DNA of 64,000 nucleotides, from positions 1-64,000 of the forward strand of contig CAZCNH010000007.1 in assembly GCA_964500065.1 (NCBI GenBank), read 5' to 3'. Shown piece by piece: positions 11,625-58,371 of this stretch (within the stretch, counting starts at the first letter, position 1; every line of letters begins with the position of its first letter). Position numbers and translations under genes: made by a program. Source of the stretch: an uncultured Acidobacteriaceae bacterium. GTDB lineage: Bacteria; Acidobacteriota; Terriglobia; Acidiferrales; UBA7541. A model generated the notes under the pieces. That model saw only the letters and a list, made by a program, of their open reading frames with translations, was not told the DNA's origin and did no database searches.

Positions 11625-11642
11625 ATTAACCATGCTTAATCA
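11625..11642 (+). promoter_or_regulatory. near-palindromic candidate operator ATTAACCATGCTTAAT overlapping the mntH start codon
   Basis: Imperfect inverted repeat. The same motif class recurs at ~28084 (see findings). Confidence 0.3.
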
Positions 11643-13021
11643 TGGCGTCGCCTGAGAACAGTACGCTGAACTCTCCGCCCACCTCTCCGTTAGGGCACGC
11701 GAAAACGGACTCCGGCTTTCAACGAGCTGGCGCCTTGCCTTCCCTCCCGGAAGCCTACCGCACCGTCCCCGTCTATTCCGGGTCTTCCACTTGGCGGAAG
11801 CTTTTGGCTTTTGCCGGGCCCGGCTATCTGGTCGCCGTGGGCTACATGGATCCCGGCAATTGGGCCACCGATCTGGCGGCAGGCTCGAAGTTTGGCTACT
11901 CGCTGCTTTGGGTCATCTTGCTCAGCAACATCATGGCCATGTTTCTCCAGGCCCTTTCCGCGCGACTGGGAATTGTGACCGGACGCGACCTGGCACAAGC
12001 TTGCCGGGATCACTATTCCAAGCCTGCCGGAATCACCCTATGGCTGCTGTGCGAGATTGCCATCGCCGCCTGCGACTTAGCCGAAGTGCTCGGGTCCGCC
12101 GTTGCTCTAAAACTGCTGTTCGGCATCCCGTTGCTCGCAGGGGTGCTGATTACCGCAGCCGATGTGCTTCTCGTGCTGGCTTTGCAGGGACGCGGTTTCC
12201 GCAAGATCGAAGCCCTGGTGATTGCGTTGATTGCCACCATCGCGGGCTGCTTCGCGTATGAAATTTTCTTTGCTCAGCCGCTGTGGTCGGAGGCTGTCGT
12301 GGGTTTTCTTCCTGCCACGGAGATATTCCGCAACCGCGAGATGTTGTACCTGGCCATCGGCATCCTGGGCGCCACGGTGATGCCCCACAACCTCTACTTG
12401 CACTCCAGCGTGGTGCAGACCCGGGCGTTCGGGGACCAACTCGAATCGAAGCGCGAGGCGGTGAAGTTTGCCACCATTGACTCGACCATCGCGCTGGGAT
12501 TCGCCTTCTTTATCAACGCATCCATCCTGGTGATGGGGGCAGCCGTCTTTCACAAACGCGGCATGACCGAAATCGCGGAGATTGACCAGGCCTACCAGTT
12601 GCTTTCCCCGGTGATGGGGGCGAGCCTCGCGAGTATCTTGTTTGCCTCCGCCCTGCTTTGCTCTGGCCAGAATTCGACGCTCACCGGAACCCTGGCGGGT
12701 CAGATCGTCATGGAAGGCTTTCTGAATTTCCGCCTGCCCGCCTGGCTGCGCCGTATGATCACCCGAGCCATTGCCATCGTACCCGCAGTGATCGTGATCG
12801 GCTGGATGGGGGAAGGCCAAGTGACCAACCTGCTGGTGCTGAGTCAGGTGGTCTTGAGTTTTCAATTGCCCTTCGCGGTCGTACCCTTGGTTCTTTTTAC
12901 CAGCGACAAGAAGAAAATGGGGGAGTTTGCCAATCCACCATGGGCGATCGCTGTTGGGTGGACCATGGCCGCAATCATTATTCTGCTCAACGCCCTGCTG
13001 ATTTATCTGGTTCTGCGCTGA
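11642..13021 (+). CDS. mntH: Nramp-family divalent metal (Mn2+/Fe2+) transporter MntH
   Basis: Nramp signature DPGNWATDLAAGSKFGY, multiple TM helices, 459 aa. Confidence 0.9.
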   Translation: MASPENSTLNSPPTSPLGHAKTDSGFQRAGALPSLPEAYRTVPVYSGSSTWRKLLAFAGPGYLVAVGYMDPGNWATDLAAGSKFGYSLLWVILLSNIMAMFLQALSARLGIVTGRDLAQACRDHYSKPAGITLWLLCEIAIAACDLAEVLGSAVALKLLFGIPLLAGVLITAADVLLVLALQGRGFRKIEALVIALIATIAGCFAYEIFFAQPLWSEAVVGFLPATEIFRNREMLYLAIGILGATVMPHNLYLHSSVVQTRAFGDQLESKREAVKFATIDSTIALGFAFFINASILVMGAAVFHKRGMTEIAEIDQAYQLLSPVMGASLASILFASALLCSGQNSTLTGTLAGQIVMEGFLNFRLPAWLRRMITRAIAIVPAVIVIGWMGEGQVTNLLVLSQVVLSFQLPFAVVPLVLFTSDKKKMGEFANPPWAIAVGWTMAAIIILLNALLIYLVLR

Positions 13022-13030
13022 ACGGGCGGA

Positions 13031-14411
13031 TCAGGCAGTCAATTGAGCGACGAGAAATTCAAGCACGGCGCGGTGATCCGCGGCGCCGCCCTTCAATTGC
13101 GAATCCGCGTCGTAGAGAGCGGTCAGTCCGGCCAGGAGCCGCTCGCGCGGCATTTTTTGAGCGGCGCGCAACGCCAGTTCTGCGGTATCGGGCTTCATCT
13201 TCAGCAGGCCTGCCGCGGCAAATCGGTTCAAGCCGCGCGGCGCGCCATTGGCTTCAATCAGCTTGCGGTACATCCAGGCCAGCCCGCCAATCAGCCCCGC
13301 GGGCTGCTCGCCTTCGCGCAGAATGCGGTCAATAAATTCGAAGGCCTGCCCCGGCTTTCGTTCCGCCAGCATATCCGCCAGTTGCCAAACGGAGGATTTC
13401 TGATCCGCCACCACCAGTAATTCCACTTCGCGCGCAGTGATTCTTTTTCCCGGTCCCACGTAAGTCGATAGTTTTTCCAGTTCAGTCCGGACCCGCGCCA
13501 GTTCCCCGTTGCAGGCTTCGGCCAAGTCCGCAGCGGCGCCGGTTTCGATGACCGCGCCTGCCTCCCTGGCGATTTCCGGGATCATGCTCTGGCAGGCTTC
13601 GATAGCCGCTTTGCGTTTTTCGTCGCCCTTGCCCTCCGCCAGTTCTACGCTGACCAGTAGCGTCTGGCTGAAAAGCAGCTTGAAGAGCTTTGTGCGCTGG
13701 TCCAGTGACGCCGCTTCCAGCACCAGCACCGTGAAGGGCGCCGGGGCTTCCAGGTACGCGGCCAACTGCTTTTCGGTTTCTTCCCGGCCCCACGTAAGTC
13801 GATAGTTTTTCCAGTTCAGTCCGGACCCGCGCCAGTTCCCCGTTGCAGGCTTCGGCCAAGTCCGCAGCGGCGCCGGTTTCGATGACCGCGCCTGCCTCCC
13901 TGGCGATTTCCGGGATCATGCTCTGGCAGGCTTCGATAGCCGCTTTGCGTTTTTCGTCGCCCTTGCCCTCCGCCAGTTCTACGCTGACCAGTAGCGTCTG
14001 GCTGAAAAGCAGCTTGAAGAGCTTTGTGCGCTGGTCCAGTGACGCCGCTTCCAGCACCAGCACCGTGAAGGGCGCCGGGGCTTCCAGGTACGCGGCCAAC
14101 TGCTTTTCGGTTTCTTCCCGCTTTTCGTCACCCAGCCGGGCCAGCGCCTCCACCCCGGAGAGAATAATGACCTGCAGCGGCGAGAGCATGGGCAGGGTCT
14201 GCGCCCGCTGCAGCGCTGGCTCCAGAGAGATGTCCTCGAGCGAAAGCCGCGTGACCGCCCAGGCGCGCGCCGGCGGCGGCACATAGGCATCAATCAGTTT
14301 GTTGCGGCACAATTCGCGCAGGTAGAGATCTTCCCCGAGCAACACAACCGCCGGGACAGGCTGGCGCTTCGCCAGTTTGGCCAAGAATTGCTCGACGTTG
14401 CTGGACGCCAC
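13031..14411 (-). pseudogene. holA: DNA polymerase III delta subunit (holA), split into two ORFs (13482..14411 and 13031..13765) by a 334-bp tandem duplication that shifts the frame
   Basis: N-terminal ORF has the delta-subunit N-domain (VVLLGEDLYLRE...). The same 105-aa stretch (AYLEAPAPFTVLVLEAAS...TELEKLSTYVGPG) is encoded twice. Removing one 334-bp copy restores a ~348-aa HolA. GTG start overlaps the lptE stop (TAGTG). Conserved lptE-holA order. Confidence 0.75.
13457..14124. repeat. perfect direct tandem duplication, 2 x 334 bp (one mismatch at the junction), inside holA
   Basis: Identical +-strand shadow ORFs 13509..13805 and 13843..14286; identical peptide stretch in both minus-strand ORFs; junction at microhomology ttcccgg. 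Confidence 0.9.
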
Positions 14412-14938
14412 TAGAAATTCTCCAGCAGGGCGCTCACCAGCGTGGCCGCGAACTCCCGCGCCAGCCGGTCGAGCGCCGGGTTCTGCTCTTCAAAGAAACT
14501 CTTCAAGTCCGCGGAAATTTCATACTGTTCGCGGAACAGGTACTCGTCATTTTCCCACAACACTTTCTTGGAGGCGGCTTCCACAAACTTCACCCGGAGC
14601 CGGACCGAAACCAGCATGGTTGTGGCCCGCCCGGTGGCGGTATCGAACAGCACCGCATTGGATTCTAGACTGGTGACTTCGCCGCTCAGAACCGCATCCG
14701 CGTTCGCTGGGTCGGATACCACCCGGTACCTGGTCCGCGCCAGAAACTCCCGCACCAATGCTTCGGTCAACCGTTGCTCGACACGGAAGCGCGAAGTCTT
14801 GTTTTCCAGCGCAGGAATGGCCACGGTCTTGATTCCCGCAGGCAGTCCCGCGCCGGTTCCCGCCACGCGGTAACCGCAACCGGCAAAAAGGAAGGCGCAA
14901 CAGAAAACCAGCCAAAGGGAAGAATAACGGCACATCAT
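14411..14938 (-). CDS. lptE: LPS-assembly lipoprotein LptE
   Basis: Lipobox-type signal peptide (LVFCCAFLFAGCGY) starting at internal Met 14938; LptE-like length; sits immediately upstream of holA as in the leuS-lptE-holA arrangement. Confidence 0.7.
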   Translation of the reverse strand: MMCRYSSLWLVFCCAFLFAGCGYRVAGTGAGLPAGIKTVAIPALENKTSRFRVEQRLTEALVREFLARTRYRVVSDPANADAVLSGEVTSLESNAVLFDTATGRATTMLVSVRLRVKFVEAASKKVLWENDEYLFREQYEISADLKSFFEEQNPALDRLAREFAATLVSALLENF

Positions 14939-15003
14939 TTGAGAAGCCGCGCGGTCCCTGTTTTCCATTTTCCCTGTTCCCTTTTTCAGAAGACAGCGGG
15001 CAA

Positions 15004-16014
15004 TCATGAAGCAAGCAACGTTTCTGCGATGCTAATCGCGTTGGCTGAAGCCAGGCGCAGGTTATCCGCCGCGCCCCAAATCCAAAAGCCACCGGGAAGA
15101 TTGCCATCGCGCTGCACCGGCCCCAGGTGAATCACCGATTCGCCGGCGATGGAGACGTTCGTAGGCGACTCCACGGCAGACGTGGCCACTTTCCAGCCCA
15201 CGGCTTCAAATGCGCGATCGAGATCTCCGGGCTCGCGTACCCCTGGAGCTTCCACAAAGGCGCTAAAGGCGAAGCCATAGAATACCGGAGCATGAACCAC
15301 CTGCAGGGCCGGCTCAGGCAAGCGGCCCGCAAGATACTCTTTGACCTCCAACGCCGCTGCTGCGCTGATTTCCGGCAAGCGCGGCCGGGCTTCCTCTCCA
15401 TAGCCAGCCATGAGATTGAACGCCACCTGGGTATCGAAAACGCCAGAGGCAATCGGCTTCAGCGAAAGCAGGCCCGCGGTCTGGCTCTCTAGTTCTTCGA
15501 TGCCCTCCTGTCCCAGTTCGGAAACGGGCCGGAACACGGTGATAGCCGACCGGGACGGAGCAATCTCCCGGAGAGCGACGGCCAGCGCGCATGCAATCAA
15601 CGCTGGAGGTGAAGGCGAGGAGAACGCTTTCCCGCTCGCGGGGCGTGGCGGTCCCAGCCATTTGCGCAACGAGGGAATCCAGTGGTTAGCGTCGAAGTGC
15701 CGCGCAAGGTGCCCGCTCATATCAATGAGCGTGGTTCCGCCGTGGAGAGCCTGCTGGGCGTGCCGCGCCGTCAGGTCGGCGCTCCCGGCAAAAAAGGCGA
15801 AGCGCACACCGTCAAAACTTTCTTCGTCAATCCCCTGTATCACCAGGGGCTCACCGCCGGCTTCGGTCAAGGTGCCATCTACCACTTCGTCATCCAGCAG
15901 GCGGATATCGGTGGCCGGAAATCCCCGCTCTTCGAGGGCTGCTGCCAAATCCTTCCCGCGCAGGGAGGATGCGCCCACAATGGCCACTCGGCAGTAGTTA
16001 GAATGGAGCGACAT
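15004..16014 (-). CDS. aspartate-semialdehyde dehydrogenase family protein (Asd/USG-1-like)
   Basis: N-terminal NAD(P)-binding VAIVGASSLRGK; C-terminal GAADNLRLASANAISIAE resembles the Asd dimerisation domain. Confidence 0.7.
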   Translation of the reverse strand: MSLHSNYCRVAIVGASSLRGKDLAAALEERGFPATDIRLLDDEVVDGTLTEAGGEPLVIQGIDEESFDGVRFAFFAGSADLTARHAQQALHGGTTLIDMSGHLARHFDANHWIPSLRKWLGPPRPASGKAFSSPSPPALIACALAVALREIAPSRSAITVFRPVSELGQEGIEELESQTAGLLSLKPIASGVFDTQVAFNLMAGYGEEARPRLPEISAAAALEVKEYLAGRLPEPALQVVHAPVFYGFAFSAFVEAPGVREPGDLDRAFEAVGWKVATSAVESPTNVSIAGESVIHLGPVQRDGNLPGGFWIWGAADNLRLASANAISIAETLLAS

Positions 16015-30588: not shown

Positions 30589-30718
30589 CTTCCGTCATTC
30601 TAAGACCGCCGGAGGCGGACGAAGAATCTCGATGTTCAATGTTGCGGAAGACTTGTGACCGAGATTCTTCGGCCAAAACCGGGCCTCAGAATGACGAAGT
30701 GACTTCTTCCGCAGCCTG
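30589..30718. repeat. ~130-bp nested-palindromic intergenic element, copy 1 (sits in the 5' leader region of the sufS-like gene)
   Basis: About 80% identical to 58240..58371. Outer stem GTCATTCTaAG/CTCAGAATGAC, inner stem CGAAGAATCTCG/CGAGATTCTTCG, direct repeat of GACGAAG. Confidence 0.8.
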
Positions 30719-35565: not shown

Positions 35566-35641
35566 GCGCCCTTAGCTCAATGGATAGAGCGTCTGGCTAC
35601 GAACCAGAAGGCTGGGGGTTCGAGTCCCTCAGGGCGCGCCA
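35566..35641 (+). tRNA. tRNA-Arg (anticodon ACG)
   Basis: Folds by hand into a cloverleaf: acceptor GCGCCCT/AGGGCGC, D-arm GCTC-AATGGATA-GAGC, anticodon arm TCTGG-CTACGAA-CCAGA (ACG), T-arm GGGGG-TTCGAGT-CCCTC, discriminator G, encoded CCA. Confidence 0.9.
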
Positions 35642-35656
35642 CTTCATTGCCCCAGA

Positions 35657-35911
35657 ATGTTCCACGTTTATGTCCTTCGCAGCACTGTCACCGGTCGGCA
35701 CTATGTCGGCCACACTTCCGACGTTACCCAACGAGTCGGTCAGCACAATCGAGGAATTACGAAGTCAACCAGGAACCGTGGCCCATGGGAACTGGTTCAC
35801 CATGAGTCGTACGAGACCAAACGTGAAGCCACTCGACGGGAGAGGTTCCTGAAAACCGGCAAGGGCCGCGAAGAATTGAAGGCCATACTTAACGCGAAGC
35901 TTGCACCATAG
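35657..35911 (+). CDS. small stand-alone GIY-YIG nuclease-domain protein (YhbQ/UPF0213-like), copy 1
   Basis: MFHVYVLRS...GRHYVGHTSDVTQRVGQHNRG...ESYETKREATRRERFLK matches GIY...YIG...R...E...N spacing. 84 aa; starts 16 nt after the tRNA. Confidence 0.8.
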   Translation: MFHVYVLRSTVTGRHYVGHTSDVTQRVGQHNRGITKSTRNRGPWELVHHESYETKREATRRERFLKTGKGREELKAILNAKLAP

Positions 35912-35979
35912 CTGTTGGATAGAGTCCGCCTGCGGCGGAAACCAGAAGGCTGGGGGTTCGAGTCCCTCAGGGCGCGCCA
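35912..35979 (+). pseudogene. tRNA-Arg-derived fragment: D-arm-like segment, GC hairpin TCCGCCTGCGGCGGA in place of the anticodon arm, then intact T-arm/acceptor 3' strand with CCA
   Basis: GCTGTTGGATAGAG-TCCGCCTGCGGCGGA-AACCAGAAGGCTGGGGGTTCGAGTCCCTCAGGGCGCGCCA aligns to the intact tRNA except for the 5' acceptor strand and the anticodon arm. Confidence 0.7.
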
Positions 35980-35994
35980 CTTCATTGCCCCAGA

Positions 35995-36249
35995 ATGTTC
36001 CACGTTTATGTCCTTCGCAGCACTGTCACCGGTCGGCACTATGTCGGCCACACTTCCGACGTTACCCAACGAGTCGGTCAGCACAATCGAGGAATTACGA
36101 AGTCAACCAGGAACCGTGGCCCATGGGAACTGGTTCACCATGAGTCGTACGAGACCAAACGTGAAGCCACTCGACGGGAGAGGTTCCTGAAAACCGGCAA
36201 GGGCCGCGAAGAATTGAAGGCCATACTTAACGCGAAGCTTGCGCCATAG
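35995..36249 (+). CDS. small stand-alone GIY-YIG nuclease-domain protein, copy 2 (identical protein; one synonymous difference)
   Basis: Same 84-aa sequence as 35657..35911; single gca->gcg difference at the last Ala codon. Confidence 0.8.
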   Translation: MFHVYVLRSTVTGRHYVGHTSDVTQRVGQHNRGITKSTRNRGPWELVHHESYETKREATRRERFLKTGKGREELKAILNAKLAP

Positions 36250-36325
36250 CTGTTGGATAGAGTCCGCCTGCGGCGGAAACCAGAAGGCTGGGGGTTCTCC
36301 GCCGCGGCGGACTCAGGGCGCGCCA
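36250..36325 (+). pseudogene. second tRNA-Arg-derived fragment; the T-loop is additionally disrupted by GC hairpin TCCGCCGCGGCGGA
   Basis: Same as fragment 35912..35979 up to GGGGGTTC, then TCCGCCGCGGCGGA replaces GAGTCC, then CTCAGGGCGCGCCA. Confidence 0.65.
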
Positions 36326-36341
36326 CTTCAACCCACTCCCC

Positions 36342-58239: not shown

Positions 58240-58371
58240 CTTCCCCGTCATTCTGAGTCTGCCGAAGGCGGACGAAGAACCTCGACGTTCATTATCGCCA
58301 AGGACTTGGGATCGAGATTCTTCGGCCGCTTCGCGGCCTCAGCATGACGAAGTGACTTTTTCCGCATCCTG
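58240..58371. repeat. ~130-bp nested-palindromic intergenic element, copy 2 (sits in the 5' leader region of ggt)
   Basis: About 80% identical to 30589..30718; same position and orientation relative to the downstream minus-strand gene. Confidence 0.8.

Follow-up and report, generated by a model that had tools for sequence, protein, structure and literature searches.

A 334-bp tandem duplication frameshifts holA in a contig from an uncultured Acidobacteriaceae bacterium

In the window analyzed here, a 64-kb stretch of DNA from an uncultured Acidobacteriaceae bacterium, a 334-bp segment inside holA, the gene for the δ subunit of DNA polymerase III, is written twice. Since 334 mod 3 = 1, the duplication shifts the holA reading frame. 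On balance, we favor the view that the junction between the two copies was present in one or a few of the molecules sequenced, from which the assembler took it into the consensus, and that the working gene is the single-copy form encoding 348 amino acids. We infer the template switch that would have formed the junction, the minority status of the molecule, and the role of the assembler, the minority status solely from the expected lethality of the allele.

Results

Identity and reading frames of the split gene

As written in the window, the gene consists of two open reading frames (ORFs) on the minus strand. The N-terminal ORF (13482..14411) starts with GTG and encodes 309 aa, of which residues 1 to 210 are native and the 99 aa beyond the junction are out of frame. 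This ORF matches PF06144 and covers positions 2 to 180 of the TIGR01128 profile. The C-terminal ORF (13031..13765) encodes 244 aa, starts at a TTG that is codon L105 of the native gene, runs to the gene's own stop codon, matches PF21694, and covers TIGR01128 positions 84 to 316. No GGAGG-like or other Shine-Dalgarno–like motif was found ahead of this TTG (upstream sequence GGGAAGAAACCGAAAAGCAG). The two ORFs overlap in different frames, and no single ORF of ~330 to 360 aa is present in the gene as written.

When one 334-bp copy is removed, a single ORF of 348 aa results, a length within the range expected of HolA. The rebuilt protein scored 47.4 bits against PF06144 (cutoff, 21), 48.2 bits against PF21694 (cutoff, 27), and 189.5 bits against the TIGR01128 equivalog (cutoff, 80), the last match extending over profile positions 2 to 316, that is, the whole profile. 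The nearest solved structure is that of Bacillus subtilis δ (PDB 3ZH9, E = 3e-27). The rebuilt protein aligns end to end with homologues of 58 to 72% identity, and there is no indel at the junction. By these sequence comparisons, the gene is identified as holA, with the duplicated segment inside it. The original prediction had placed the duplication within holA, and PF06144, PF21694, TIGR01128, and 3ZH9 all agree with it; the frameshift and the two ORFs that it described, 13482..14411 and 13031..13765, were both recovered at those positions, and the δ of ~348 aa that it expected upon deletion of one copy was regenerated as a 348-aa ORF collinear with homologues. Compared to HolA as represented by TIGR01128, PF06144 plus PF21694, and 3ZH9, the gene with one copy removed is full length, collinear, and located at the conserved position next to lptE, whereas the gene as written is split and frameshifted, with residues ~99 to 210 encoded twice.

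The frame shifts at Gly210. Residues ~99 to 210 presumably correspond to the last third of domain I together with domain II, if the domain limits of Escherichia coli δ apply. The frameshift parts the clamp-binding N-terminal domains of δ from its collar-forming C-terminal domain. δ is needed for clamp loading, and holA is essential in both E. coli and B. subtilis.

Genomic context

The left edge of the holA locus is formed by an Nramp/MntH-type transporter gene (11642..13021, plus strand) that is convergent with holA. Directly upstream of holA lies lptE (14411..15007, minus strand; PF04390), preceded by a semialdehyde dehydrogenase–like (asd-like) gene (15004..16014, minus strand). Of 80 loci from relatives, all 80 have lptE directly upstream of holA, and 77 have the asd-like gene as well. 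Because the lptE-holA position is conserved in all 80 relatives, the holA of the window is, as judged from gene order, the orthologous and normally unique holA. The lptE stop codon TAG and the holA start codon GTG share one base (TAGTG, 14409 to 14413), an overlap that suggests translational coupling within the conserved asd-like/lptE/holA string.

A tblastn search with the rebuilt HolA detected no second holA in the 64-kb window. The window is otherwise clean: 91% of it is coding, its ORFs are up to 1189 aa long, holA is the only broken gene, and there are no Ns. Besides the duplication in holA, Tandem Repeats Finder (TRF) and a second repeat finder detected only a tandem repeat at 35602 to 36297 and one dispersed repeat of 127 nt in the 64 kb.

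Structure of the repeat and its junction

Both repeat finders reported a head-to-tail repeat in holA at 13447 to 14120, with a period of 334, 2.0 copies, 99% matches, and 0 indels. Copy 1 (13447..13780) begins with TTCCCGG and has a T at 13454; read on the minus strand, this copy specifies holA residues ~99 to 210 in the frame leading into the native C terminus. Copy 2 (13781..14114) starts at the junction with a second TTCCCGG (13781 to 13787) followed by a C at 13788, and on the minus strand encodes the same residues, ~99 to 210, in the frame coming from the native N terminus. There is no spacer between the copies, and the sequence of the junction is GGTTTCTTCCCGGCCCCACG. In a base-by-base comparison, 13455 to 13786 and 13789 to 14120 were identical over 332 consecutive positions. 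The sole mismatch between the 334-bp copies, T at 13454 versus C at 13788, adjoins the junction and is synonymous (GGA/GGG, Gly208). The two back-to-back 334-bp copies with one differing base described in the original prediction were thereby recovered both by the repeat finders and by direct comparison. Since the copies differ only at the base adjacent to the junction, the duplication must be extremely recent.

The same prediction had reported a TTCCCGG microhomology at the ends of the duplication. A microhomology does exist, but it is not 7 bp long. TTCCCGG is present at the left border (13447 to 13453) and at the junction (13781 to 13787), whereas the right border, where a third occurrence is located (14115..14120), has only TTCCCG, followed by a C. 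All three sites thus share only the 6-bp TTCCCG. On the minus strand, the microhomology reads CGG-GAA at one end (codons R98-E99, to which the right-border hexamer corresponds) and (C)CG-GGA-A at the other (P209-G210-K211). A blunt, random 334-bp duplication in the window would have endpoint microhomology of at least 6 bp at 0.2% of positions (an empirical frequency of ~0.002). The endpoint microhomology thus favors a homology-guided join over a blunt computational one, although 6 bp of microhomology is by itself weak evidence.

The C at the junction matches neither of its candidate templates, since positions 13454 and 14122 are both T. An origin of the mismatch as a strain polymorphism was considered and rejected on the same ground: with T in both candidate templates, the C is a new base.

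Occurrence of the duplication in relatives and public data

Related holA loci were collected from GTDB representative genomes. The resulting 80 loci (0.97 Mb) all come from Acidobacteriota/Terriglobia-type metagenome-assembled genomes, with identities of at most 53%. In every one of them, holA is single copy, with a length of 993 to 1044 bp, and TRF found no tandem repeat with a period of at least 100 bp in the 0.97 Mb. The best 120 homologues are 333 to 361 aa long. Neither the duplication nor a matching gain in length is present in the 80 related loci or among the best 120 homologues.

The 244-aa C-terminal ORF is identical to a catalogued protein, P0005, which is found on a single NCBI contig of 80,968 bp. 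This contig most likely belongs to an unannotated metagenome-assembled genome, probably one from the Acidobacteriota (Terriglobia). As this exact ORF is catalogued, the duplication is already in the public record. P0005 was also the sole high-identity match in a protein search with HolA residues 70 to 240, and a codon-degenerate 47-nt pattern for residues 213 to 228 had no match in JGI metagenome contigs. Neither these searches nor the scan of GTDB representative genomes turned up an independent assembly of the organism.

Two ENA long-read contigs from Acidobacteriota relatives also have a split holA call, with ORFs of 172 and 118 aa in L161 (793 to 3411) and of 171 and 141 aa in L162 (1456 to 3432). 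The asd and lptE genes of L161 are in pieces too. These splits look like typical indel noise, and split holA calls in public metagenome assemblies are thus commonly technical. Because the window, unlike L161 and L162, is otherwise clean, an isolated structural event fits the holA duplication better than general noise does.

Programmed frameshifting or translational rescue was rejected as an explanation, since the split recurs in none of the 80 related loci or the best 120 homologues. No slippery site was seen by eye in the 299 nt from the junction to the stop of the N-terminal ORF at 13482.

The second tandem repeat consists of tRNA-linked GIY-YIG units

The repeat at 35602 to 36297 has a period of 338 bp and one mismatch. 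Each 338-bp unit combines the 3′ end of tRNA-Arg(ACG), position 37 onward, with an 84-aa GIY-YIG ORF (PF01541 match at 1.9e-15) and a tRNA-like remnant. The tRNA-Arg(ACG) gene ends 15 bp before the ORF, and a copy of tRNA positions 37 to 76 lies 32 bp after it. In the remnant at the end of the unit, a hairpin, TCCGCC-TGC-GGCGGA, occupies the place of the anticodon arm, and the array, within 35566 to 36329 of the window, closes with a degraded tRNA 3′ fragment, the third in the series. Hairpins of the form TCCGCC-(N2-3)-GGCGGA are located at 35925 to 35939, 36263 to 36277, and 36298 to 36311; in the degraded third fragment, the GC-rich hairpin stands in for the T-loop segment GAGTCC. For the hairpin, a scar left at the target site, a site for a nuclease, and a small insertion are all conceivable.

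Homologues of the GIY-YIG ORF were examined in 80 further loci (L081 to L160) from JGI metagenomes. Most of these have the same layout, in which an intact tRNA gene is followed after 6 to 30 bp by an ORF of 74 to 84 aa and, after another 22 to 78 bp, by an exact or near-exact copy of the tRNA 3′ end. The tRNAs that precede the units include Arg-ACG, Arg-TCT, Lys-CTT, and Pro-GGG/TGG/CGG, as well as others. Tandem arrays of two or three units, frequently accompanied by additional degraded copies, are present in about 10 of the 80 loci, and TRF detected arrays with periods of 313 to 325 and 76 to 95% identity in four of the loci (L123, L132, L133, and L140). In six loci (L082, L085, L090, L107, L109, and L147), the contig starts within tens of bases of the ORF (match start at locus positions 10 to 88), which is consistent with tRNA-derived repeats breaking short-read assemblies.

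Because a similar layout and tandem pairs recur in independent metagenome contigs, the 338-bp period is set by the architecture of the element. The similarity between 334 and 338 bp is then best read as a coincidence. The original prediction had counted the holA repeat as the second near-perfect duplication of ~335 bp in the window; another such duplication does exist (35602 to 36297, period 338), but the common cause that this count implied did not hold up, as the other repeat is made of tRNA-linked GIY-YIG units.

Discussion

Origin of the holA duplication

The original prediction left three options for the duplication, namely, an artefact, a variant present in a subpopulation, and a duplication that is somehow tolerated, and we regard these as the right ones. 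In the scenario that we favor, a polymerase would have copied up to the TTCCCG at 14115 to 14120 and re-annealed on the identical hexamer 334 bp upstream, at the left border (13448 to 13453). The interval would then have been copied again, and a single wrong base would have been incorporated beside the switch point. Such a template switch could have taken place in vivo, giving a just-arisen, non-propagating slippage product, or in vitro, giving an amplification chimera. The product would be a holA null allele, and the assembler would have written its structure into the consensus. It is very unlikely that the duplicated allele is the working gene of the population, because δ is needed for clamp loading.

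A contig built from a de Bruijn graph can hold a junction only if reads hold it, and, since a perfect 334-bp repeat exceeds the usual k, the assembler must have used read pairs or long reads. Among the molecules of a clonal bacterial culture, spontaneous duplications that are unique and have short direct repeats at both ends are common (PMC3411829), and metagenome assemblers report variants backed by a single read (Trigodet et al. 2025, bioRxiv 10.1101/2025.04.22.649783). In the former study, candidate duplications whose microhomology was only 7 to 9 bp long could not be verified experimentally (Sun et al. 2012, PMC3411829). Counting against a junction carried by rare molecules, a variant that is lethal in vivo should be very rare among molecules. 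PCR chimeras, for their part, usually need longer homology. The fact that the 338-bp tandem pair was resolved suggests, in addition, that spanning information was available, so the read support of the holA duplication may be substantial.

A rather unlikely but serious alternative is that the duplication is purely computational, the 334-bp interval having been written twice by the assembler or during merging or polishing, with no molecule ever containing the junction. False duplications without any read support have been documented for all tested long-read metagenome assemblers (bioRxiv 10.1101/2025.04.22.649783), and the odd C at the junction may be an error in the consensus, made where no read truly crosses the position. 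The essential nature of the gene and the absence of the duplication from all relatives agree with this explanation, as does the splitting of holA through assembly noise in L161 and L162. However, the endpoint microhomology of at least 6 bp would arise by a blunt join only ~0.2% of the time, and joins based on overlaps or k-mers normally need far longer matches, although some scaffolders may use short-overlap gap joiners. The rest of the window has no other sign of misassembly, and its other tandem pair matches a natural architecture. That the duplication is instead the real, dominant allele of a living population whose cells survive with it appears improbable. Survival could be afforded by a second holA/δ gene elsewhere, by multiple chromosome copies with an intact allele regenerated through recombination between the 334-bp repeats, or by a δ made of two polypeptides. 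The duplication does stand in the deposited consensus of a contig that is otherwise of high base quality, and both ORFs are intact, the N-terminal one keeping complete domains I and II and the C-terminal one keeping domains II and III. Yet no second holA exists within the 64 kb, and the broken copy occupies the conserved lptE-holA position, that of the single holA in 80 of 80 relatives. The C-terminal ORF would have to be translated from a TTG without a Shine-Dalgarno–like motif, and the split parts the clamp-binding from the collar portion of δ; we know of no precedent for a functional δ split in such a way. The copies, moreover, have not diverged and give no sign of persistence.

We consider it highly improbable that one process with a characteristic length, either technical or a lineage-specific burst, made both ~335-bp duplications. 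The two periods, 334 and 338, are only 4 bp apart, and each repeat has one mismatch, in both cases a synonymous transition. Against a shared cause, the 338-bp unit is a discrete element in which a tRNA 3′ part is combined with an 84-aa GIY-YIG ORF, most of the 80 metagenome loci have single units of like design behind tRNA genes (with a comparable spacing of ~326 bp in L086), and tandem pairs with diverged copies (76 to 95% identity) occur in independent assemblies. The borders of the GIY-YIG units share at least 20 bp of tRNA-derived homology, compared to 6 bp for holA, and TRF found no further tandem repeat in the window.

Relation to known events and practical consequences

By either of the two routes, template switch or computational error, the holA feature would be a known kind of event, either a tandem duplication flanked by microhomology or a false duplication made in assembly. 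It does not represent a new system, a new recoding device, or a new gene architecture. It resembles the RecA-independent, microhomology-mediated tandem duplications of Salmonella (PMC3411829) in being head to tail and without a spacer, with a short direct repeat at both endpoints, one copy of which is kept at the junction, and in being private and recent. It differs from them in that its microhomology is 6 bp long, whereas the duplications verified in that study had 11 bp or more, and in that an out-of-frame duplication in an essential gene cannot be a propagating allele; an origin in vivo is, in the case of holA, only a proposal. With the false duplications of metagenome assemblies (Trigodet et al. 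2025), it has in common that a contig assembled from an uncultured community contains a long direct repeat, which makes spurious ORFs, removes a genuine one, and is biologically implausible in its context. That class is, however, defined by read clipping, a drop in coverage, or absent supporting reads, and the endpoint microhomology in holA is not predicted by a blunt computational duplication.

The duplication has little biological weight, and its practical value is that of a quality flag. In the public contig, holA will be called truncated or split, and completeness and pseudogene statistics that use the contig will be slightly wrong. The tRNA-Arg “duplication,” on the other hand, should not be taken as an artefact: it is an instance of a recurring class, the tRNA-linked GIY-YIG units, which is the more interesting object in the window.

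The GIY-YIG unit and the dispersed repeat

From its layout, the GIY-YIG unit looks like a selfish element that targets tRNA genes and brings its own replacement for the tRNA 3′ end. A search of the literature for bacterial tRNA-linked mini GIY-YIG elements retrieved only phage T4 SegB and organellar cases. The likeness to SegB, a free-standing GIY-YIG homing endonuclease (PMC2330249), would lie in the small GIY-YIG ORF beside tRNA genes and the resemblance to a selfish insertion. Unlike SegB, the units in the window are chromosomal, their 84-aa ORF has no recognizable DNA-binding domain, and each includes a duplicate of the neighboring tRNA's 3′ part.

The dispersed repeat of ~127 nt is intergenic and occurs at 30592 to 30718 and at 58245 to 58371, with 82 to 85% identity. 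A search of Rfam returned no match for it. Inverted repeats mark its termini (CGTCATTCTRAG ... CTCAGMATGACG), hairpins lie within it, CCGCCGRAGGCGG among them, and by these features it looks MITE- or REP-like.
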